Virus genome (UHGV): UHGV-1484817
Length of the DNA stretch: 64,000 bases
Source: a virus
Reading direction: 5' to 3' (one strand)
Position 1 is the stretch's first letter. Each line of letters starts with the position of its first letter. The position numbers were made by a program, and so were the translations under genes. The notes under the pieces were generated by a model. It was not told the origin of the DNA and searched no databases. It saw only the letters and a program-made list of their open reading frames with translations. Positions 1-64,000 of this stretch are shown here, in pieces.

Positions 1-982
1 TCACCGTGAAATACCCCGCGTTGATGTACTGCTGGAACGGCACATTTTTACGTCCACCGGACGCTATCAGGATGCCGTTCTCCCGTAACCAGGCAAACAG
101 CGCGTTTTGCTTAAGTCCAACAACCTTTGCAAAATTCCCAATCAGGATCCCTTTAGCTACTGATACCCGGTCGGCAAAATCGACCTTAGGAGCGGCGGCT
201 ACCAGCTGCTGATTTAGCTGGTGGGCTTTCTGTTCCAGAAGCTGCTTTTGTTCAGCCAGTTCGGCAGCCAGGCGTAGGGCTTCTGGTAATGTTTGGGGGA
301 TTGCAACCGGTTGCTGTTCTTTTTGCCGGAAGTAGCTGTCTTCCAGTTTTTCAAAGAATGCCCATGCTTCATTTGTGTCCACGATCTTAGACATGCGTGC
401 AGCGCCGCGCTCTGTCCAGAGTGTAAGGCTTCTGGCGTTCTTACCAACAGAGTAACTTCCGGTTACTCTGTTCTTAAATTCTCTTAATTTTAAACCAGTT
501 AGAAGAAAGTAATGCTTACCTTCTTCAAAGCGGTCAAGGTTGCGAGACAAATTGTTGCGAATATTGGCTTCATCGACCCCATACCCTCTAGCAAGAGTTT
601 CGGTTGTCACGACACGTACTCCCTGCCATTCCAGAACGGGAATTTCATCCGGCTGATTCTGAACAACCACCAGTTCCGATTCCTGAACTGAAGGTGCATA
701 AATTTTTTCTGATTTAACGTTAGTTGCTTTCATTCTGTGTGCCTCCTTGCGTGCTTCGGCTGCGACGGTTGCGTAATTCAGATGACCCTGTTCGAGCAGG
801 TATTCACGGATATCGGTTAGCAGAATGCGGTGAACCGCGTGTTTGTCCTTTCTCCGGTAAAGTTGTTTGGTGATCATGAAGTAGTTGGCAATAACGCCCG
901 GTATATCCCTGGTACTGATACAGGCAGTGTGCTGTTCAATTGCCTCGATCATCTCTTCACGGGTGACTAATGACGTTCTCAT
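1..982 (-). CDS. ant: Antirepressor (Ant-like, KilAC-type C-terminus) paralogue; 3-prime end cut by the window edge
   Basis: Minus-strand frame opens with ATG at 982-980 behind a GGAGG RBS and stays open to the window edge; the first residues (MRTSLVTR...) parallel the 345-aa Ant at 50130-51167. The listed plus-strand ORF 6..212 is its antisense shadow. Confidence 0.7.
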   Translation of the reverse strand, partial: MRTSLVTREEMIEAIEQHTACISTRDIPGVIANYFMITKQLYRRKDKHAVHRILLTDIREYLLEQGHLNYATVAAEARKEAHRMKATNVKSEKIYAPSVQESELVVVQNQPDEIPVLEWQGVRVVTTETLARGYGVDEANIRNNLSRNLDRFEEGKHYFLLTGLKLREFKNRVTGSYSVGKNARSLTLWTERGAARMSKIVDTNEAWAFFEKLEDSYFRQKEQQPVAIPQTLPEALRLAAELAEQKQLLEQKAHQLNQQLVAAAPKVDFADRVSVAKGILIGNFAKVVGLKQNALFAWLRENGILIASGGRKNVPFQQYINAGYFTV

Positions 983-1200
983 AGTCCCTCCTGAGCAGAA
1001 GCGTTAACAGGGAGGCACCAGTAACTGAGAGAATTGCGCGAATCGATAGAAAAGCGGGCAGAGAAAATACAGGGAGCATCCGGAAGCTGAGAACGTGCCT
1101 CATCTTCTGTCGGTGCAATAACGAAGTGATAGTGACGTTTTTGGCAGGAGTAAAAGCGCCAGATAAATTCAGAATGAGCAGGGGTAGGGATAGTAGCCAC
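979..1200 (-). CDS. icd: Icd-like small protein (73 aa) overlapping the ant start
   Basis: 73-aa ORF MATIPTPAHSEF...; its stop overlaps the ant ATG (ATGA); a near-identical paralogue lies at 51164-51385; arrangement matches the P1 immI module. Confidence 0.65.
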   Translation of the reverse strand: MATIPTPAHSEFIWRFYSCQKRHYHFVIAPTEDEARSQLPDAPCIFSARFSIDSRNSLSYWCLPVNASAQEGL

Positions 1201-1204
1201 AATG

Positions 1205-1345
1205 GCAGCCTCCTTTTGCTAATTTAAGGAGCTACCGCGTGAGGTTCCAATCTCAATGGCGGTAGCACTGACTGGGTTGGAACTACCGGCGCAAAAGGGA
1301 ACCGGCCTGCCTTTCGGCAGCCCAGCCAGCACTACCATTGATCTC
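1205..1345 (-). ncRNA. c4: c4-like antisense RNA / structured leader of the immI module (boundaries approximate)
   Basis: Non-coding stretch immediately upstream of icd, almost identical to 51390-51530, with short hairpins (CTGCC-GAAA-GGCAG) and internal repeats; position corresponds to c4 in P1 immI. Confidence 0.4.
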
Positions 1346-1385
1346 TGAGCTAAACGCTACGTATGGCTGTGCGATGGCATGACAC

Positions 1386-1408
1386 AAAAAAAGACGCTTT
1401 TGGCGTCT
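1386..1408 (-). terminator. Rho-independent terminator-like hairpin (minus strand)
   Basis: Minus-strand reading AGACGCCAAAAGCGTCT followed by seven T; lies between the pacB stop and the c4 region. Confidence 0.5.
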
Positions 1409-1540
1409 GTGTCGCCTTTTGCATTATCCGGGGTCTCAATCCCGGCACCCGTTTTAATGAGGTGCCTGATAAGCATAAACCGAAAATGCCTCAAGGCGCA
1501 AGAGGTCAGGTTCAATGTAACATCGGTAGTTAAAAAACAC

Positions 1541-1557
1541 AATTTATTAGAGCAAAT
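1541..1557. promoter_or_regulatory. C1-type operator (Op51-like)
   Basis: AATTTATTAGAGCAAAT, near-perfect reverse complement of the P1 C1 operator consensus ATTGCTCTAATAAATTT; abuts the pacB stop. Confidence 0.6.
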
Positions 1558-1559
1558 AT

Positions 1560-3044
1560 TCATTCGTTAAGCCATGCCAGAGCTTCATCAACCTGCGCTT
1601 CGTCTTCGACGCTAAGCACTTCATCCTGGGGAACATAATCCGCCAGCATAGCGAAACAATATGTATCCCAATGGTCTGGTGAGTGCAGGTTGAGTTTTTT
1701 CTTCATATCCTCCTTACTCATCACCTTCCATTGACCTGCGGAGTTAATCCCTACAGGGATTTTCGACGCTTCCTCAATAGTTTCATTACCCTTATCCAGT
1801 CTCATACGACCAGATTTTACGGCCTCTGCGGCTTGAACGTTGGCATAAGCACGTTTATCAAAGTACAGGCTCTTATCTTCACGGCTATGCATCTTTTTAC
1901 CCCAGCGTATACGCTGTACGGTAATACCATAATACTCGTACATCAGATCCGCCGTTGCTTTACCCAGGCCATCGCCGTCTATCGCTATGGTGATATTTGG
2001 GAATCGCTCAGGATTACATTCTGCGAAAATTTTGGCGGCAAGCTGCGTTTCTGTAACGTCTGTGTATTCCAGCATTCGATAGTTGATTACACGGCGTTTA
2101 TTTCGCTGGCCGGACACCATCATGATATTGATAACGGACTTATCCCGTCCCGTACCACCAGCAACGTCCACACATGCAAGCCAGCCCCATCCTTTTGCAA
2201 TCTTGACTTTCCGCCGCGTTGCACGTTCAACCTCATCACGTCCAAGAAGGAAGCCATCCTGTGATTTAGGGAATAGGCCGCGTACCTTAATCATGTACAT
2301 AGGGTTATCACGCCCGCCGTACTCCGCCAGCTTCATTTTGATAAATGCTGGCGTTACCAACGGTGATTCCTCACTGTTAAGCGTGATCGCCGTATAAACG
2401 CCATCAGGGTTACCAGGACGCTTGGCCAGTTTATGGTGTGTATCGTAGAAATAGCCGCTTGGGCGTGTAGGCTGTGACAGCAATAAGATGCGGTTATCCT
2501 GTCCGGTAAGAGCACCGGTGATGATACCGAAAGCTCTATCACTGACACCGGAGGCTTCATCGATAATATACAGAAGATGATCTGCGTGTTCACCGGCGAG
2601 AGCTTCTTCACTTCCCAGACGAAAGCCCTTCGGTACTACAGTCCATACACCTTTACCAGTAATCTCATAGAAAGCGGTTTCTGTCAGAACAAAATAATCA
2701 GCAAGCCATGGGAAACGGCTGGTGGCAGTAGCCCAGTTTATCTTGATGTACTTGAATATACCGGTCATTACCTGCTGAATTTTGTTCGCAACGATAATGG
2801 CACGGGCACCTGGATACATGATTATGAACAACATGATCATGATAGAAGTCATGTCTGATTTCCCGGTACCGTGACCAGACGAAACAGATGTCTTGCTACC
2901 CTGTTCCTGCACAGACTCAATAATCAGATCCTGCTGCCAGGTAGGTGTTTTGCCGAACAAAACATCAGCGGCAGCAATCCAGTCATAACGATATAGCGCC
3001 ACCAGCTCGCGCCAACGTGGATCCGTTACGCAACTTCTGGCCAT
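1560..3044 (-). CDS. pacB: Terminase large subunit PacB
   Basis: 494-aa ORF translationally coupled to the upstream pacA-like gene; length and gene order pacA-pacB as in P1. Confidence 0.85.
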
Positions 3045-4237
3045 TAATCATCATCCCCGTATAGCTTGCGGGTAACTTCTTCGTCTTCCTCCTCGTCTTC
3101 GTCCAGGTCTTGTTCCAGCCATGGGTCGTTTGATACACCTTCAGTATCAACATCTCCATAACCGCCTGTATCAACGATATCGGCGATTTCTTCCCTACGC
3201 TGCTCAATCCACAATGCGGCATCGGCGCGGCGGTTGGCGGCCCGTTCTCGCGCAACTTTGTCCAGATCTTCAAGAGAAGGGCCACCGACGGCTGTTTGCC
3301 TTTCCTCATCATCGGTATTGGTCTTAGGAGCACGCAGATCGGCTTTGATTTGCTCCAGCATCAGGGGCGGCACTTTTCCGCCATGCGCCTCGATGAATTC
3401 AGCTGCTTCCAGCACTGACCAGTTATTTTCACGCTTTCGTTCGTATGCCAGCTTAACAATGCCAGCTTGCCCCATAGATAAAGCGTGCTTTTCCGCCTCC
3501 CGGCTTTCTTTTCGATAGTTATTCCGGATGCTGTAAATGGTGTTGATCAGGCTGCTTATCTGCGCGGAACAGCTGTTTAGCATGCTCGCGATACGATATT
3601 CAGGCGGAGTCCCTTCATCATCGTCTTTTTGCTGATCGCGCATTTCCTGCACCAGACGAATACACGTATCCCTGGCATTCTCCAGCATAAGGAGATGAGA
3701 AAGAGACTTTTCCAGAAGAGTGGTTTCCAGAACATCGGCCCCGGACCGACGCAACATAGCGCGCGCAGCCTTCCGCGCTTCAACGTTATCTATCAGGTAA
3801 TCGCCAGCTTCGAATTCAAAGCGTTCACCATCATCATCCAGGGTGTCGCGTTCCAGGCGATCACGTAAGGTCCGGTGGGCGCGGGTGATCACGTCATGAT
3901 CATCAGAACGATCATTTATGCGCTTATTTTGGCGCTTCGCATTCTCGACTGCGGCACTGACAACGGCATTAACCCTTTGTTTTTCCGCTATTTCAGCCGC
4001 AATGTGATCACCTGCATGTTGATCATTAGAGTGATCAATGATCATGCTTTTTAGTGGCTTCCTGACTGGCTTATTTGGCTTGCGGCTGTCCGCTGTCCTG
4101 GTGTCTTCTTTGAAGGCACGGAGATAACGACGTGCAGTATTAGGGTTAAGATTAAACTCGGCGGCATACTGTGCGATGGTGTAACCACCATCTCGCGCCA
4201 GGCGAGCAAAATTCTTCTTGTGATCGTCCCAGGTCAC
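3044..4237 (-). CDS. pacA: Terminase small subunit / pac-recognition protein PacA
   Basis: 397-aa ORF, acidic C-terminus; contains the TGATCA hexamer clusters typical of a P1 pac site within its coding sequence. Confidence 0.85.
3886..4044. other. pac packaging site (two clusters of TGATCA hexamers)
   Basis: TGATCA at 3886, 3897 and at 4005, 4020, 4032, 4039, with a CGATCA at 3909; two clusters about 100 bp apart, the architecture described for P1 pac (Dam-methylatable hexamers). Confidence 0.6.
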
Positions 4238-28167: not shown

Positions 28168-28243
28168 TGGTGGCCCCTACCGGACTTGAACCGGTGACCG
28201 TGCGATTATGAGTCGCCAGCTCTAACCACTGAGCTAAAGGGCC
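28168..28243 (-). tRNA. tRNA-Ile (anticodon CAU, lysidine type)
   Basis: 76 nt with cloverleaf, anticodon loop CTCATAA, T-loop GGTTCAAGTCC, encoded CCA; close to E. coli ileX-type tRNA as I recall it. Confidence 0.8.
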
Positions 28244-30242: not shown

Positions 30243-30318
30243 TTGGTGCCGGTTAACGGACTCGAACCGCTGACATCCTGCTTACAAGGCAGGCGCTCTA
30301 CCAACTGAGCTAAACCGG
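30243..30318 (-). tRNA. tRNA-Thr (anticodon UGU)
   Basis: GCCGGTTTAGCTCAGTTGGTAGAGC...CTTGTAA...GGTTCGAGTCC...CACCA cloverleaf. Confidence 0.85.
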
Positions 30319-30320
30319 CA

Positions 30321-30395
30321 TTGGCGATGGTGGATGGATTCGAACCACCGACCAGTTGGTTAACAGCCAACTGCTCTACCGCTGAGCTACACCAT
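30321..30395 (-). tRNA. tRNA-Asn (anticodon GUU)
   Basis: GATGGTG/CACCATC acceptor stem, anticodon loop CTGTTAA, T-loop TTCGAAT, encoded CCA. Confidence 0.8.
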
Positions 30396-31050
30396 CACTT
30401 GCCGGGTACGTCTCCGGCGAGGGCTTCCACCTCCGTATGCTTTTCGGCGCACCGCGCCCTGGCTGCAATTCGGTAACAGGGGATGCACAACCCTGGCTTC
30501 CAGCGTGATTAGCGCCTTCAGCATGACGGGATATACCCGTAAATTCGTGGAACTGTACCCAAAGTGCTGTTAAGCACCGCTGTTACGCTGAAAAGAAAAC
30601 GCAACAGGAAAGGACGCTGACCAACAGATGGCCCCTTCTCGTTCATCTGGTTAATCACACCAGCGCCCTTACCTGTTGTGCCTCCCCGTTCCCTAATACA
30701 CAGACGGGGACACTCTGCGGTCGATTTTTTGACGGGGGACGACTCATACCCCGTGGCATCTGGCTTCTTAGGCCGCTACCATCATCAGATCATCGTTTGC
30801 ATTTACTTTAATGGTCAGTTTCTAAACCGCCGCAAAGTCGCTAACCATGACGAAAACCCTGAAAAAAACGCCCACCCGAAGATGGGCAAACTGGAAGCTC
30901 GTAACGCACTTCGGCGTTGCCACTTAGGCGCATGGTCAACCTGGCAACTCGGTGGTTTGTCTGGGAGGGCTAGGCCCAGCCATGCTTACCGCCGCGCCTG
31001 TCGCGGCTAACAGCTAAATCGCTCTATAAATCACGATTCATTGAGGCGAT

Positions 31051-47215: not shown

Positions 47216-47812
47216 ATGGCTGTGATTCCAATGTCGTACTCCCCGGGTACTGTCGCTCGTCGATTTTCGATCCTGGACGGAGTTACCATCCAGGGTGTGC
47301 TTTACCAGGTTATATGGGATTCCAAAACCCCATTTGCAGCTGTAATAGAGGCTGCGCCTTCTGTTATCGATGGTGATATGCGGCATAAGGTTGTCGCTAC
47401 TCTTGAACTTCAACGTCGCCCGCAGCTTGAAGGCGTACTGGTAAGGAAGTTCTGGGAGGATAGCGATGTTGCCCAGATTGAAGGTATCGTGGTTGATGGA
47501 ACTGTCCGGGATGTCGGTTTAGCTACTTTTGTTTACGAAACCGTAGCCTCAAAAGCTGGTGTTGTTTTGCTCAGTGATAATGAGCAATACGAAGGTGGAA
47601 AAGCTCTTTGGCAACATATCGCCCGTCGCTCTTCCGAGCTAAAAGTGTTTATCCTCGACACCGATGCCGCTCAGTATTACCCGTTTGACGGCGAACGTGT
47701 TTGCTATGACGGGGTAAGTATTCCTGAATCCGAGATATGGAGTGAACACCCAGATCGAAGTAAGCATGGGGTTGTTCTGGTCGCTGAATCCATAATTGGA
47801 AATGCGGCATAG
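47216..47812 (+). CDS. Hypothetical protein
   Basis: Start at ATG 47216 behind AGGGGGA; ORF track gives the longer 47180 start. Confidence 0.45.
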   Translation: MAVIPMSYSPGTVARRFSILDGVTIQGVLYQVIWDSKTPFAAVIEAAPSVIDGDMRHKVVATLELQRRPQLEGVLVRKFWEDSDVAQIEGIVVDGTVRDVGLATFVYETVASKAGVVLLSDNEQYEGGKALWQHIARRSSELKVFILDTDAAQYYPFDGERVCYDGVSIPESEIWSEHPDRSKHGVVLVAESIIGNAA

Positions 47813-47994
47813 CAGTAAAAAATTCCTTGCTCCTTAAAATGGGAGAGGGTTAATCTACGTATGCTAAGCATAGATATGGCCTCAGATTAATGTTAAGCGT
47901 CTTGCAGGACGCGTAATGTTATCTGGGGCTTTCTTCTATCTGCTTTTCGGGTAATGCCTGAAGCAGATAGCCTCAAGCACCCGCAACGATTGTA

Positions 47995-48321
47995 TCAATG
48001 TCTGGCTTTTTTTCTATAGAAATCACCTGGAAGGGTGAATATCCACATCAGAAGAAATGTAGCAGCAAACATGATCCCTAATGGCCAGACCGCGCCAAAG
48101 AAAATCCATACTAAGATCTCCTCTGCTCGTTCTTTGCGGTCGATATCGACAAGCATTTTTCGGCTGATCATGTATACACAGAAGCCAATACAAACATATC
48201 CTGCAAAAGCGATCGCTAACTGTAAAAAATCAGATTGCATCTCCGACCTCAAACTGAAAACGCCAGGTGACTCCAGATTAGAGCAATCTATCACCCTCTG
48301 AATCCTGCCGGTATACCCCAT
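47995..48321 (-). CDS. Small membrane protein
   Basis: 108-aa ORF with 2-3 hydrophobic helices, downstream of repL. Confidence 0.4.
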   Translation of the reverse strand: MGYTGRIQRVIDCSNLESPGVFSLRSEMQSDFLQLAIAFAGYVCIGFCVYMISRKMLVDIDRKERAEEILVWIFFGAVWPLGIMFAATFLLMWIFTLPGDFYRKKARH

Positions 48322-49136
48322 TGTTCGTTATCTTTATTTTTGGCTAAAACCGCATTAAGAGCTTCGTTTACCGTCATGCAATGCGGCAGATTATCGAAGT
48401 TTGATACCCCGCCAATATCAGGAGAACGCTTGTTCTTCAGGTAAGCATATTTCCGCGCTGCCGCCTCTACTTTCTGCTTGAACTCATGTTTTTGAGCGCG
48501 TTTTTTGGATAACCGCAGATTGTCAGCCTTTGCTTTTGCCTCAGCGATCCATGAAGTCAATTTTTTGAGTCTGGTCGTTCCGGCACCGCCGGAAACTGAT
48601 CTTTTTGTTTTTTTAACTTGTGACTTCTTATTCTTTATTGCCACGTCATCCTGACAGGGGGAGGGGGTATCATTTTGACATGGGGGTGTGGATAAAAAAT
48701 TAAATAAAGCCAATGTCTTAGCGAGAACAGCTTTAACCTTGGTTGCCGCTGAAGAGATCTTTAATTTGCTTTCAATCAGCGCATTTTTGGCTTGTTGTGC
48801 GAAGGCCAAAAAGGATGGTGTAAACCGGTACAGGTTAGCACGACGTTCATGGTGATCGCCGATAACAATCTCTACAGACAGAATTCCTTTGTTTACAGCT
48901 TCACGGAATGCACGAACGACGGTTGATTGGCTATAACCAGTTTCTGCCGCGATCAGGCGGTGAGGCTTGTGAATGAAGTATTCACTGGTTGTTGCCGCTA
49001 GATTTGCACATTGCGACAGGATATGCCCGGCGCTACGAGATAGACCGGAGTGTGTTACAAAGCAGGCCAATTCATAGCCAGAAAAAGTAAAATCGCTCAT
49101 CGTTATACAGCTCAGGAAAGTGACTTTAGCCAGCAT
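48291..49136 (-). CDS. repL: Lytic replication initiator RepL
   Basis: Downstream of kilA in a C1-controlled operon as in P1; N-terminal helix-turn-helix-like region, basic C-terminus. Real start may be the internal MSDFTFSG. Confidence 0.7.
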   Translation of the reverse strand: MLAKVTFLSCITMSDFTFSGYELACFVTHSGLSRSAGHILSQCANLAATTSEYFIHKPHRLIAAETGYSQSTVVRAFREAVNKGILSVEIVIGDHHERRANLYRFTPSFLAFAQQAKNALIESKLKISSAATKVKAVLAKTLALFNFLSTPPCQNDTPSPCQDDVAIKNKKSQVKKTKRSVSGGAGTTRLKKLTSWIAEAKAKADNLRLSKKRAQKHEFKQKVEAAARKYAYLKNKRSPDIGGVSNFDNLPHCMTVNEALNAVLAKNKDNEQWGIPAGFRG

Positions 49137-49165
49137 TACAATGCTGGTGGTTCTTACTACGTCTG

Positions 49166-49966
49166 TTAGCGCGTTGCCGCGACAGGTACCAGCACACCAG
49201 CATCAAGCAATCGCTTCATCAGCCACTGCTGACCTTTGCCGGTTATACGAGTCGTGAAAGAAATCCTGCTTCCATTGCTTGTATCGATCACGGTTTCTTT
49301 AAGGGTGAAATACCCACGGGATATGTATTCTTGTTTGGGGACGTTCCTGCGTTCACCGGTTGCGATCAGAATTCCGTTATCACGCAACCAGGTGAAGAGA
49401 TAGTTTTGGCCCAGGCCGAGCACTTTGGCATAGTTGCCGATTAGAACCCCGCTGGCGGTAGCAACGCGTTCGGCGAATTCGACTTTAGGCGCATCCATAA
49501 GCATTTTTTGCTCCAGCCGTTGCTTTTGCTCTGCCAGGTCGGCAGCCAAACGGAGAGCTTCAGGGAGACTCTGCGGAATAGCAGGTTGTAATCTTCCGGC
49601 TCGATAGTCGATAAATGTCTGGTTTACCTTCAGCCGAAACGCGGGAGAAATCCAGCCTGCGTACTCCACAGCGAGCAATTCATGGGCAAACGTACCGCCG
49701 CCACGGCCTTCGAACGAAACTATGCAATTCTGCATAGTTTCTTTTTCAAGCTCTTCGATAAGCTGTTTGGCTGACAGCGTTCTTAGCCATTGAGCTGGCG
49801 CTTTATGGGCACCGAGTCCGCTCGCTCTGTGTAGAGCATTAAGGTTGTAACGGCCAGCGCGGTCGGTCGTAATTTCAACACCACAAATAACAGGCAGAGT
49901 GGTTGAAGGATCGACATTTTGATGAAGGTTTGATATATTCATATCCGCATTGAATGTTTGTTGCAT
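49166..49966 (-). CDS. kilA: KilA protein (KilAC-type C-terminus)
   Basis: 266-aa ORF; C-terminal block ...PEALRLAADLAEQKQRLEQK...PKVEFAERV... shared with the Ant proteins; C1 operator upstream. Confidence 0.75.
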   Translation of the reverse strand: MQQTFNADMNISNLHQNVDPSTTLPVICGVEITTDRAGRYNLNALHRASGLGAHKAPAQWLRTLSAKQLIEELEKETMQNCIVSFEGRGGGTFAHELLAVEYAGWISPAFRLKVNQTFIDYRAGRLQPAIPQSLPEALRLAADLAEQKQRLEQKMLMDAPKVEFAERVATASGVLIGNYAKVLGLGQNYLFTWLRDNGILIATGERRNVPKQEYISRGYFTLKETVIDTSNGSRISFTTRITGKGQQWLMKRLLDAGVLVPVAATR

Positions 49967-50034
49967 TTTTTCTCCAAATTTGCATCAACCTTCAATCACC
50001 AGCTCGAAAAGGTGATTCTTTGCACTTAGAAAAC

Positions 50035-50051
50035 GAAATTTATTAGAGCAA
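50035..50051. promoter_or_regulatory. C1-type operator (Op53-like) for the kilA-repL operon
   Basis: AAATTTATTAGAGCAAA, 16/17 reverse-orientation match. Confidence 0.6.
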
Positions 50052-50129
50052 ATTTTTCTGACCCGATCCAGATCGGGTTGGACGATCTGCTCAGAAACCT
50101 GCCAGTTTGCTGGCAGGTTTTTTCTTTTG

Positions 50130-51167
50130 TTAACCTATTGCTACTGGTTTTAACAAACCAGCATCAAGTAGCTTGCGAGTTAACCACTGCTGGCCTTTAC
50201 CCGTTAATTGGGGCGTCAGCCGTATCTGGTAGCCATTTTCATCATCCAGCACCACTTCTTTCACCGTGAAATACCCGGCGTTAATGTACTGCTGGCGCGG
50301 TACGTTTTTGCGCGCACCAAAAGCCATGAGAATGCCGTTCTGGCGCAACCATGAGAAAAGGGCGTTTTGCTTAAGTCCAACGACCTTTGCAAAGTTCCCG
50401 ATCAGGATTCCATTGGCCACTGATACCCGGTCGGCAAAATCGACTTTAGGGGCTGCGGCCACCAGCTGTTGTTCCAACTGCATTTTCTGTTCTGCTAACT
50501 CGGCAGCCAGGCGTAGGGCTTCTGGTAATGTCTGGGGGATCGATGGGGTAGGGGAGTTTGCCTGCTGTAATTCTTCCAGTTTGTCGATCAGCGAACGGCG
50601 GACCGCTTTTGACTCGCGCGCGGCGACTCGCAGGGCTTGTTTGAAAGTCATGGTTATGACAAGCATTGATGTTTTGTTCATTTTTTCCACTACACTTTTT
50701 GTGTAGTGCTCACCATCAAGCTCATCGAGTATTTTTTCGATGAATTTGTTGTTCCGAACCTCTGGTTCCCCACATAACTTACGCGCTTCATTGACCATCT
50801 TTAACAGTGTCTGGCTGTCGATTGTGTCTCCAGTGTTGGAGATAACATTCACAGCTGGTGATGGCGTAGCTGAAGCAACAGGTGCTGTTTTTTCAACATT
50901 TAAATTATTACCGGTCATTCTATGTGCCTCCTTTCTCATTTCTGCTGCCACTGTTGCGTAACGTAGACGTCCTTGTTCAATCAAATAATCCCTGATCTCG
51001 GCTATCAGTAGCCTGTTGATCACAGCCTTATCTGTTCGGGTATAAAAACGTCTGGTTATCATGAAATAGTTAGCAATTGCGCCGGGGATCTCCCGTGTCG
51101 GCATACAGGCAGTATGCAAGGCGATCGCTTCGGCTATTTCATTACGGGTGACGAGAGGTGTTTTCAT
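50130..51167 (-). CDS. ant: Antirepressor Ant
   Basis: 345-aa ORF with KilAC-type C-terminus; start overlaps the icd stop; c4-like leader upstream. Confidence 0.8.
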   Translation of the reverse strand: MKTPLVTRNEIAEAIALHTACMPTREIPGAIANYFMITRRFYTRTDKAVINRLLIAEIRDYLIEQGRLRYATVAAEMRKEAHRMTGNNLNVEKTAPVASATPSPAVNVISNTGDTIDSQTLLKMVNEARKLCGEPEVRNNKFIEKILDELDGEHYTKSVVEKMNKTSMLVITMTFKQALRVAARESKAVRRSLIDKLEELQQANSPTPSIPQTLPEALRLAAELAEQKMQLEQQLVAAAPKVDFADRVSVANGILIGNFAKVVGLKQNALFSWLRQNGILMAFGARKNVPRQQYINAGYFTVKEVVLDDENGYQIRLTPQLTGKGQQWLTRKLLDAGLLKPVAIG

Positions 51168-51385
51168 AAACCCCCCTGAACGTCGGCAGAGAAGGGGAGG
51201 CTCCAGTAACTAAGTGAATTGCGCGAGTTAGTTGAAAAACGGGCAGTAAAAATGCAGGGGCCATCAGGCAATTGAGAGCGTGCTTCGTCTTCTGTTGCTG
51301 CGATAACGAAGTGATAGTGGTGTTTTTGGCAGGAGTAAAAGCGCCAGATAAATTCAGGATGAGTAGGGGTAGGGATAGTAGCCAC
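51164..51385 (-). CDS. icd: Icd-like small protein (73 aa)
   Basis: MATIPTPTHPEFIWRFYSCQK...; overlaps the ant start. Confidence 0.65.
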   Translation of the reverse strand: MATIPTPTHPEFIWRFYSCQKHHYHFVIAATEDEARSQLPDGPCIFTARFSTNSRNSLSYWSLPFSADVQGGL

Positions 51386-51389
51386 AATG

Positions 51390-51530
51390 GCAGCCTCCTT
51401 TTGCTAATTTAAGGAGCTACCGCGTGAGGTTCCAATCTCAATGGCGGTAGCACTGACTGGGTTGGAACTACCGGCGCAAAAGGGAACCGGCCTGCCTTTC
51501 GGCAGCCCAGCCAGCACTACCATTGATCTC
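51390..51530 (-). ncRNA. c4: c4-like antisense RNA / structured leader (boundaries approximate)
   Basis: Near-identical to 1205-1345; same hairpins. Confidence 0.4.
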
Positions 51531-51568
51531 GGAGCTATGTGCTACGTATGGTTGTGCGATGGCATGAC

Positions 51569-51593
51569 ACAAAAAAAGACGCTTTTGGCGTCT
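51569..51593 (-). terminator. Rho-independent terminator-like hairpin (minus strand)
   Basis: Same AGACGCCAAAAGCGTCT plus T-run as at 1386-1408. Confidence 0.45.
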
Positions 51594-51882
51594 ATGTCGC
51601 CTTTTGCATTATCCGGGGTTCCAATCCCGGCATCCGTTTTACTAAGATGCCTGTTTAGGATAAACCGAAAATGCATTAGCACGCAAGCAAGTTAATGTAG
51701 CATATGAAGCTAAAAAAATAAAATAATTAGAGCAACTTGCAACCATGTAAATTATTTCTCTGGTAACTAAAATGTATGAGTTTAATTGATATGGGTCAAA
51801 GATTTTGACCATTGCATGGTGAAACTTTATGCTACAAAATGTTATTTTAAGGCGTTTTATCTGTGGCAGGAGATAGTTAATC

Positions 51883-62729: not shown

Positions 62730-64000
62730 ATGAATGACGTTACAGTTGTTACATCGGTTACTTACCCATCACCCGAGTCGTTGGCTCTGGTGGCTGATGT
62801 GCAATACCACGAACCATATCTGTCAGCCGCTCTAAACCGAAAATTCAGGGGAATTGTTGACCCGGGATTTTATGCTGGTTTCTTGCCTAAGCCTGGCGGT
62901 GGAATGAACCTGTTAATCACCTCAGTGGATGGAGATAAAACCGCTGGCGCGGCGTCAGTGGATATTGGTGAATTCTACCAGGTAACTATTCAGCATCGTA
63001 AGGATATCTCTCTTGCACTTAACGCAGGCAAGAAATATGCAATTGTGCTGAAGGGAAGATACCTTCTTGGAGAAGATACCTATCAGGTGAATACCGCGTC
63101 ACATATTCATGCAGCTGAATTTGTTGCCAGAACCTATACCGATTCATATCAGTTAGGTGATGGGGAACTGCTGGTTTGTACGGTGAATATCCCTGCTGGC
63201 GTATCTACCATTACTCAAGAGATGATTGATACATCCGAGCGTATCAACCGCACGATCGGCATTGATATTTCAGACTCTGTAACCAGTACCAGAAGTGATG
63301 TTGCTGCGAGTTCGCTGGCAGTTAAAAAAGCCTACGATCTGGCGAAAAGCAAGTATACGGCGCAGGATGCAAGCACAACGCAAAAGGGATTAGTTCAGCT
63401 CAGTAGTGCCACTAACAGCACGTCCGAAGTGCTGGCCGCCACACCGAAAGCTGTCAAGGCTGCATATGACCTGGCTAACGGGAAGTATACAGCCCAGGAT
63501 GCAACCACGACACAAAAAGGGATAGTTCAGCTCAGTAGCGACACCAACAGCACTTCTGAAACATTAGCTGCAACTCCAAAAGCGGTTAAAGCTGCATACG
63601 ATCTAGCAGCCGGAAAGGCACCATCCAGTCATACACATCCCTGGAATCAGATCACTGGTGTGCCAACAGCTTCATTGACAGCGAAAGGCATCACTCAGCT
63701 CAGTAGTGCCACTAACAGCACGTCCGAAGTGCTGGCCGCCACACCGAAAGCTGTCAAGGCTGCATATGATTTGGCTAATGGAAAGCAAGCGGCAGACGCT
63801 ACGCTCACTGCTCTAGCGGCACTAGCTACAGCAGCAGATAAACTCCCTTATTTCACAGGTGTTGATCGTGCCGCGTTAACTGCATTGACAAGTGTTGGAC
63901 GCGCCATTCTTGGTAAGACCAGTATTCAGAGCGTTCTTGATTACCTTGGTTTGGGAGAAGGCTCGGCGCTGCCCGTTGGTGTACCTGTTCCATGGCCCTC
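62730..64000 (+). CDS. Tail fibre protein (5-prime part; continues beyond the window)
   Basis: Frame open from ATG 62730 (MNDVTVVTSV...) to the window end; three tandem repeats TQKG.VQLSS.TNSTSE.LAATPKAVKAAYDLA typical of enterobacterial phage tail fibres. Confidence 0.75.
   Translation, partial: MNDVTVVTSVTYPSPESLALVADVQYHEPYLSAALNRKFRGIVDPGFYAGFLPKPGGGMNLLITSVDGDKTAGAASVDIGEFYQVTIQHRKDISLALNAGKKYAIVLKGRYLLGEDTYQVNTASHIHAAEFVARTYTDSYQLGDGELLVCTVNIPAGVSTITQEMIDTSERINRTIGIDISDSVTSTRSDVAASSLAVKKAYDLAKSKYTAQDASTTQKGLVQLSSATNSTSEVLAATPKAVKAAYDLANGKYTAQDATTTQKGIVQLSSDTNSTSETLAATPKAVKAAYDLAAGKAPSSHTHPWNQITGVPTASLTAKGITQLSSATNSTSEVLAATPKAVKAAYDLANGKQAADATLTALAALATAADKLPYFTGVDRAALTALTSVGRAILGKTSIQSVLDYLGLGEGSALPVGVPVPWP

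Follow-up and report, generated by a model that had tools for sequence, protein, structure and literature searches.

The 64,000-nucleotide (nt) stretch of the virus genome UHGV-1484817 analysed here, called the window at its full length, carries two immunity cassettes of the immI type, in which a small antisense RNA, C4, is followed by the genes icd and ant, the latter encoding an antirepressor. The main cassette occupies the canonical locus, and the second, called the left cassette, lies on the minus strand at 1-1560, directly after pacB, with its ant cut by the window edge. The existence and nature of the left cassette are near certain. Both cassettes are of the specificity W-TTCC-TTTTGC (scaffold, then the alleles of the C4 recognition sites a' and b'), with C4 RNAs and both a2/b2 targets identical; therefore, as far as sequence can tell, one C4 species should repress both of two different antirepressors in this window, as a preliminary description of the stretch had supposed. 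We consider it probable, at roughly 0.6, that this state arose through a short gene-conversion patch from the main to the left cassette, leaving one C4 for two antirepressors and a mismatched a1 decoy in the left leader. The window represents a P1-like phage-plasmid of the RCS47/JL22 lineage. Over positions 1-3100 its identity is 99.5% to Escherichia phage JL22, 96.7% to phage RCS47 and 99.6% to several complete Escherichia coli (E. coli) plasmids.

The left cassette and its likeness to the main one

Every element that had been listed for a second c4-icd-ant module at the left edge was found, with small corrections only, as shown in Table 1. The minimum free energy fold of the C4 RNA has a' and b' both unpaired or in a loop, and the target-site search that had been proposed together with leader folding found a' and b' perfectly complementary to a2 and b2 in both cassettes. 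The left Icd and P1 Icd share 79% identity over residues 11-73; Pfam returned no match for C1 or for Icd, which could be named only from NCBIfam. The icd stop codon overlaps the ATG of ant1 as ATGA at 979-982, and translation of ant in the left cassette would be coupled to that of icd. About 131 nt of the left ant lie beyond the window end, judged from relatives, and the full-length JL22 orthologue of the left Ant contains an ORF6N domain (PF10543, 2.5e-18) and a KilAC/ANT domain (PF03374, 1.5e-31).

At the C1 operator previously placed at 1541-1557 an operator-like site is present, the earlier coordinates being one base off. The window contains 12 operator-like sites, where chance would give 0.29, and the left one has the same orientation and place relative to its cassette as Oc4/Op51 in P1. 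The -35 element of the putative left promoter overlaps this site, an arrangement that mirrors P2c4/P51a of P1, and the TGnTACATT motif is kept in the main cassette at 51694-51699; a promoter with an extended -10 element is likely here, and the region reads as a C1 operator overlapping the promoter of the cassette, as in P1 immI. The promoter and operator regions of the left and main cassettes have diverged. Downstream, 1387-1465 shows both a covariance-model match and a terminator-like hairpin of an IsrK-type leader, in which a1 matches the TCTC allele of relatives and not the a' of its own cassette. Pfam gave no match for the 68-amino-acid (aa) open reading frame (ORF) at 1357-1563.

RefSeq/PGAP annotates in relatives a 39-aa coding sequence for an 'ash family protein', equivalent to 1219-1338(-) and 51404-51523(-) of the window, and its position within the C4 gene, in the same orientation, makes a false protein prediction from an RNA gene the probable explanation. 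The protein accession varies with the C4 allele (WP_071527722.1 for TCTC, WP_001396852.1 for TTCC-TTTTGC and WP_071526433.1 for TTCC-TTTGAC), and the translation of the window's own 'ash' ORF had no NCBIfam match.

Table 1. Coordinates of the left cassette, its neighbours and the main immI locus in the window
Feature	Position	Strand	Basis or remark
Left cassette			
C1 operator-like site TTTGCTCTAATAAATTG	1540-1556	-	two mismatches to P1 consensus ATTGCTCTAATAAATTT
Putative promoter: -35 TTGTGT 1537-1542, 17-nt spacer, TGn and -10 TACATT 1514-1519	1514-1542	-	by-eye reading
IsrK-like leader RNA	1387-1465	-	Rfam RF01394, 59 bits against gathering 50
a1 TTGAGAC in leader	1433-1439	-	two mismatches to the cassette's own a'
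b1 GCAAAAGG in leader	1415-1422	-	perfect match to b'
Terminator-like hairpin in leader, stem and U-run	1392-1408	-	terminator scan
C4 antisense RNA gene	1255-1342	-	Rfam RF01695, 76.7 bits against gathering 45, full length
b' CCUUUUGC, C4 hairpin loop	1291-1298	-	
a' GUUCCAA, single-stranded junction of C4	1277-1283	-	
a2 UUGGAAC	1244-1250	-	perfect complement of a'
b2 GCAAAAGG	1212-1219	-	perfect complement of b' CCUUUUGC
C4 target region (a2 and b2)	1209-1250	-	layout as annotated a2/b2 sites of P1
icd Shine-Dalgarno AAGGAGG	1209-1215	-	overlapped by b2
icd, 73 aa, GTG start	979-1200	-	ORF; NCBIfam NF033153 phage_ICD_like, 49.6 bits
ant1/ant2, first 327 of about 370 codons, 5' part in window	1-982	-	open frame, runs off edge
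ant1 ATG	980-982	-	
ant2 ATG, nested	731-733	-	behind GGAGG
Neighbours			
pacB, terminase large subunit, 494 aa	1560-3044	-	ORF; upstream of left cassette
pacA	3044-4237	-	ORF listing
Main immI locus			
Main immI cassette	50130-51736	-	canonical locus
Operator-like site	51720-51736	-	
IsrK-like leader	51572-51650	-	Rfam RF01394
a1	51618-51624	-	
b1	51600-51607	-	
C4	51440-51527	-	Rfam RF01695, 76.7 bits
a2	51429-51435	-	
b2	51397-51404	-	
icd	51164-51385	-	
ant	50130-51167	-	
Op53-like operator	50036-50052	-	one mismatch; precedes kilA and repL
kilA	49166-49966	-	KilA-N and ANT domains
repL	48291-49136	-	

Rfam matches to C4 in the window are two only, and the left and main C4 genes are identical at 88 of 88 nt. 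The earlier impression that the leader, c4 and icd parts are nearly identical is right for a perfect core of 166 nt, the longest exact shared stretch (1180-1345 = 51365-51530), but not for the whole region, where 1195-1500 and 51380-51690 agree at 288 of 311 positions with 5 gap positions counted (92.6%), and not uniformly so. The ant genes are diverged, as had been said, the two Ant proteins being 57% identical: the Ant1-specific N-terminus is conserved between the copies, the C-terminal KilAC domain is about 90% identical, and the centre is swapped, with ORF6N in the left copy and the P1 type in the main copy, so that the centres do not align. The main Ant is 94% identical to P1 Ant1, and kilA and repL (48291-50052) mark the main immI locus in the order known from P1; neither follows the left cassette. 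Among relatives the Ant centres are not bound to a site, as a P1-like centre occurs in the pacB-c1 cassettes L003 and L050 and an ORF6N-like centre in the kilA-linked cassettes L034, L082 and L117; these domains therefore shuffle between cassettes.

Origin of the identical C4 core

Relatives were compared in 123 Icd-anchored IMG/VR loci, 42 further left-leader loci and a set of complete records. The closest left copies (JL22, p1919D3-2, pGCUET01-1, pS51_2, pP136-6 and pNADC1036IncYphage) carry a' TCTC, a2 GAGA and a1 GAGA, and from leader to icd the left copy of the window differs from them only at 1280-81 (a') and 1246-47 (a2). These four compensatory bases (1246, 1247, 1280 and 1281) are those of the window's main copy, and the left a1 (1433-1439) keeps the GAGA allele of the relatives. 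The proposal that gene conversion had homogenised the regulatory part fits this pattern: a patch from the main cassette would have rewritten a' and a2 of the left one, and its a1, unconverted, would no longer match. The exchanged tract spans at least 36 nt (1246-1281) and at most 166 nt (1180-1345), and the parental configuration, left TCTC with main TTCC on the W scaffold, exists in pP136-6 and pNADC1036IncYphage. The exact left allele of the window was seen in no other record among complete E. coli genomes, PLSDB and the IMG/VR loci, none of which holds the source record; the best match to 1175-1530 in complete E. coli genomes and PLSDB reaches 98.9%, that is, four mismatches, and among 279 genomes and 322 plasmids bearing this leader the allele is a singleton. 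The mirror case occurs in the 62.8-kb IMG/VR contig 3300045988_157941 (loci L157 and L090), where both cassettes have a'/a2 TCTC/GAGA and the main a1, GGAA, is mismatched.

Several points weigh against gene conversion or against the regulatory picture that goes with it. The same four-base homogenisation could be given by a repeat-collapsing or polishing error, and contig 3300045988_157941 stops exactly where the shared repeat ends, within the left icd, as would also be expected of a collapsed de Bruijn node. The consensus promoter scan found no minus-strand promoter within 1-1800, c1 itself lies outside the window, and C1 binding, C4 processing, Rho-dependent polarity and the anti-C1 activity of an ORF6N-type Ant would be carried over from P1 by analogy. 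The pairing energies point both ways: the duplex of a TTCC C4 on a GAGA target reaches -3.4 kcal/mol against -9.4 kcal/mol when matched; the motif UUGAGA adjoins a2 on its 5' side in all W-type cassettes (1244-1256 in the window), the TCTC-allele target being a tandem UUGAGA-UUGAGA, and a TCTC C4 is therefore predicted to pair with a GGAA-type target in a shifted UUGAGA register, at -9.7 kcal/mol. As a test of orthogonality through a' alone the duplex energies were thus ambiguous and were set aside, and on this model cross-repression might be one-directional.

Unlikely, though the main rival, is the explanation that the cassette is real and the identity of the C4 genes an assembly or polishing artefact, the true genome being like pP136-6 (left TCTC/GAGA, main TTCC/GGAA) and a four-base bubble in an otherwise identical repeat having been popped or mis-polished to one variant. 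That parental configuration is found in two complete plasmids, the left allele is a singleton among the 279 genomes and 322 plasmids, the left a1 is mismatched, unlike in 27 of 27 other W-type left leaders, and the reciprocal contig stops at the repeat border as a collapsed graph node would. However, the parental shared flanks measure only about 64 nt (1282-1345) and 66 nt (1180-1245), so that k of at least 77 or long reads would separate the copies, and reads with four mismatches are not normally mis-mapped; the repeat was resolved, because the window spans both copies in one sequence. Natural mosaicism is moreover common, with T05-type left copies that have main-copy-like segments and with Ant middle domains that swap between the sites.

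It is improbable that the identical C4 and target core was kept or fixed by selection for co-regulation of both antirepressors. Both cassettes are intact and the identical stretch is exactly the functional RNA with its targets, yet the window allele is a singleton, and the unconverted a1 speaks for a recent, unpolished event. Full homogenisation was seen in 2 of 5 elements with two W-scaffold cassettes, which is no excess over the roughly 24% identical W/W pairs that random pairing predicts, and all 24 co-resident groups of IMG/VR differ. Gene conversion from the main to the left cassette is thus preferred, and the identical regulatory core is regarded as a rare local event or an assembly error.

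C4 specificities and the insertion beside c1 in relatives

The C4 genes of the relatives fall on three scaffolds, W (the type of the window), P (the P1/P7 type) and T, all of which score as Rfam C4, and about 15 specificities were counted on them. W-scaffold alleles have a' TTCC or TCTC and b' TTTTGC or TTTGAC, P-scaffold alleles have a' CT or TC and six variants of b', and the 26 T-scaffold modules share a single allele, both sites of which pair by means of G-U wobbles. In all 86 W- and P-scaffold modules from IMG/VR, a2 is perfectly complementary to a', and in all but L106 b2 is likewise complementary to b'; a1 corresponds to a' in 43 of 46 W-type modules and, in the second sample, in every W-type left leader (27/27). 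The C4 RNA contacts are evidently under selection. P1 (P-TC-ACTAAC) and P7 (P-CT-ACAATC) are separated by a 2-nt swap in each loop. The single exception, L106 (IMG/VR contig 2565956613_000015), has a C4 b' (ATTCGT) unmatched to its own b2 (ACTAAC type), for which natural derepression of the cassette, recombination or a short contig of chimeric origin may account.

Three sites carry cassettes: pacB-c1, where the scaffold is T or W; the position before kilA, where it is P or W; and, only in some elements, a position roughly 6 kb past c1, where it is P. The third C4-icd-ant cassette, with a P scaffold and a c4-a1b1-type leader, was seen about 6 kb past the pacB-c1 cassette in L066-L081 (for example L074 with L016, contig 2648501186_000003) and is probably the counterpart of the 'RD-1' icd-ant homologues in pSvP1; in one genome there are four Icd loci. 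The hybrid locus L088 (IMG/VR contig 2778261639_000014) joins pacB and a left-type leader (a1 GAGA) to a main-type C4, icd, ant and kilA, and reflects either a recombination that fused the two cassettes and lost or inverted about 50 kb, or a chimeric contig whose parts were linked at the repeat.

Co-resident cassettes differ in specificity in 24 of 24 within-genome or within-contig IMG/VR groups. The same was observed in complete records: the left C4 is W-TCTC-TTTTGC in JL22 and W-TCTC-TTTGAC in RCS47, and differs from their own P-type main C4 (the P7 allele in RCS47), whereas the two C4 genes of the window are identical; pP136-6 and pNADC1036IncYphage differ in a' on one scaffold, and the co-resident cassettes of pIDPH14614-2 differ in b'. 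Avoidance of identical specificities within one element was considered and rejected: because the scaffolds largely sort by site, random pairing gives only about 3% identical pairs, and 0 of 24 is therefore no evidence of avoidance. Cassettes with their own C4 specificity would, from their recognition sites, act in these relatives as separate RNA locks on separate antirepressors. A wider view, possible but tentative, is that the cassettes, up to three in number, are such separate locks, whose loop-and-target specificities, at least 15 on three scaffolds, form a combinatorial code, and that short conversion patches rewire which antirepressor answers which RNA. If this is true, the window and contig 3300045988_157941 show the rewiring just after the event, with the a1 decoy still of the old specificity, and offer a natural experiment on the role of a1/b1.

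The match to the cassette-less records of P1, P7, SJ46 and phiW39 ends at 1562, exactly at the pacB stop codon, and this codon and the left operator-like site are 3 nt apart; pacB is 99.7% identical to phiW39/SJ46 pacB and 81.5% identical to P1 pacB. P1 and SJ46 have a pacB-c1 spacer of only 24 nt, which the cassette replaces, and no flanking direct repeats were seen at the insertion. The order pacA-pacB-cassette, then convergent c1 about 32 nt after the ant stop, was observed in JL22 and RCS47 and in nine complete plasmids (pS51_2, pP136-6, pEC13-3, p1919D3-2, pGCUET01-1, pNADC1036IncYphage, pMTY10828_p0111, pIDPH14614-2 and p08_4347-1), and a full-length (852-nt) c1 match stands at the same offset in 50 of 60 pacB- or c1-linked IMG/VR loci, the remainder being one c1 cut at the locus end and nine loci without a c1 match. 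Judged from these junctions, the left cassette is an insertion into the short pacB-c1 spacer and not a replacement of c1, which should lie just left of the window.

The preliminary description was correct that no c1-sized ORF is visible in 1-1560, as the ORF listing confirms, but its reading that an immI-like module had taken the slot of c1 is contradicted by the c1 kept beyond ant in JL22, RCS47 and the nine plasmids. Neither is it unusual to find two antirepressor modules: at least 236 of 5,426 complete E. coli genomes cover at least 80% of 1-3100 (275 cover 1-1700), 248 PLSDB plasmids carry the pacB-linked cassette, and the pacB-c1 'ant' insertion was already mentioned in passing by Venturini et al. 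2019 (PMC6906374). That the whole left module is a chimeric or collapsed-repeat misassembly, or that it replaces immC/c1, is an idea which the earlier prior and the absence of c1 from view in the window favour and which we regard as extremely improbable: hundreds of independently assembled complete plasmids and the phages JL22 and RCS47 share the pacB-cassette-c1 order with identical junctions, which rules out an assembly artefact as a refutation of the module, and because Ant, leader and promoter differ from the main copy, the module is not a duplicated read pile-up. Matches to the pacB-linked cassette also occur at 17-28 places on chromosomes (for example NZ_CP135649.1 at 4.07 Mb and NZ_CP097001.1 at 0.43 Mb), an indication that P1-like elements have integrated there.

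Elsewhere in the window, a sok antitoxin RNA (Rfam, 97 bits) was found at 47808-47982(-), beside small ORFs and just downstream of repL, and presumably marks a hok/sok-type post-segregational killing locus. The minus strand also has three tRNA genes, at 28171-28243, 30247-30319 and 30325-30396, which P1-like genomes are expected to carry. Three direct repeats of 132 nt, 66-76% identical, occur at 63330-63761 near the right edge, and because no complete ORF of at least 80 aa is listed there, they probably belong to a gene running off the window.

Proposed working and relation to known systems

The steps proposed for the left cassette are transferred from P1 immI by analogy. A promoter under the C1 operator would drive a single transcript, which would begin with the IsrK-like leader with its decoy sites a1/b1 and a leaky terminator, and from which the C4 RNA would be processed. 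Pairing of a'/b' with a2/b2 across the icd ribosome-binding site would block icd translation and, via translational coupling and polarity, also the synthesis of Ant1/Ant2, which, if made, would inactivate C1. According to the P1 record (NC_005856.1), binding of C4 to a2/b2 represses translation of icd-ant, expression of ant requires icd, and C1 is antagonised by Ant1/Ant2. IsrK of the Salmonella prophage Gifsy-1 acts in trans to activate antirepressor translation and is complementary to the C4-like processed RNA STnc1160 (PMC4825925).

The closest known system is P1 immI (NC_005856.1), which has the same order of Oc4/Op51, a1 b1, c4, a2 b2, icd and ant1/ant2, and resembles the left cassette in an operator placed over the promoter, both putative in the left cassette, and shares with it the Rfam C4, the a2/b2 sites on the icd ribosome-binding site, the 73-aa Icd overlapping the ant start, and an ant with nested ant1/ant2 starts and a KilAC C-terminal domain. 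The left cassette thus shows most sequence features of P1 immI, but its Ant centre is not of the P1 type, kilA-repL do not follow it and its a1 is mismatched: it lies between pacB and c1, whereas that of P1 precedes kilA-repL; its C4 scaffold is of the W type; its leader scores as IsrK and that of P1 as the c4-a1b1 family; and its Ant centre is ORF6N. P1 and P7, the classical heteroimmune pair, differ in immI by the same kind of 2-nt swaps as the W-type alleles, at the homologous a' with a1/a2 and in b' with b1/b2; those are alleles of one locus in different phages, whereas here a single element has its alleles at two or three loci, and in the window the alleles of two co-resident loci have become the same.

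The Gifsy-1 region IsrK - orf45/STnc1160 - AnrP (PMC4825925) likewise has an Rfam IsrK leader with a terminator, followed by a C4-family RNA and an antirepressor, but belongs to a lambdoid prophage without C1 control and without a P1-type 73-aa Icd, and leader trans-activation has been shown only there. P22 immI (sar - ant) is alike in that a small antisense RNA checks an antirepressor, as reviewed; sar, however, is unrelated and acts by true cis-antisense overlap, without icd and without a loop-to-target recognition code.

The same 'ant' insertion at the same pacB-c1 site is present in RCS47, pTZ20_1P and JL22 (GenBank FO818745, ON018986), where these records and PMC6906374 label it 'two short hypothetical orfs and ant' or 'roi' and leave C4, targets and specificity unannotated; ant, icd and immunity all go unmentioned in the JL22 paper. 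Searchable literature yielded no analysis of the second cassette's C4 and no description of the insertion's own C4 and IsrK-like leader, of different recognition codes in co-resident cassettes or of patches equalising them. The findings extend a well-understood system and amount neither to a new kind of system nor to a new control principle. P1-like phage-plasmids are common carriers of resistance genes in E. coli, and their superinfection, induction and coexistence depend on the antisense-RNA/antirepressor circuit of immI; two or three cassettes with different RNA specificities would explain part of the immunity diversity of these elements, and their natural allele combinations form a ready set for studying C4 orthogonality and the role of the a1/b1 leader.

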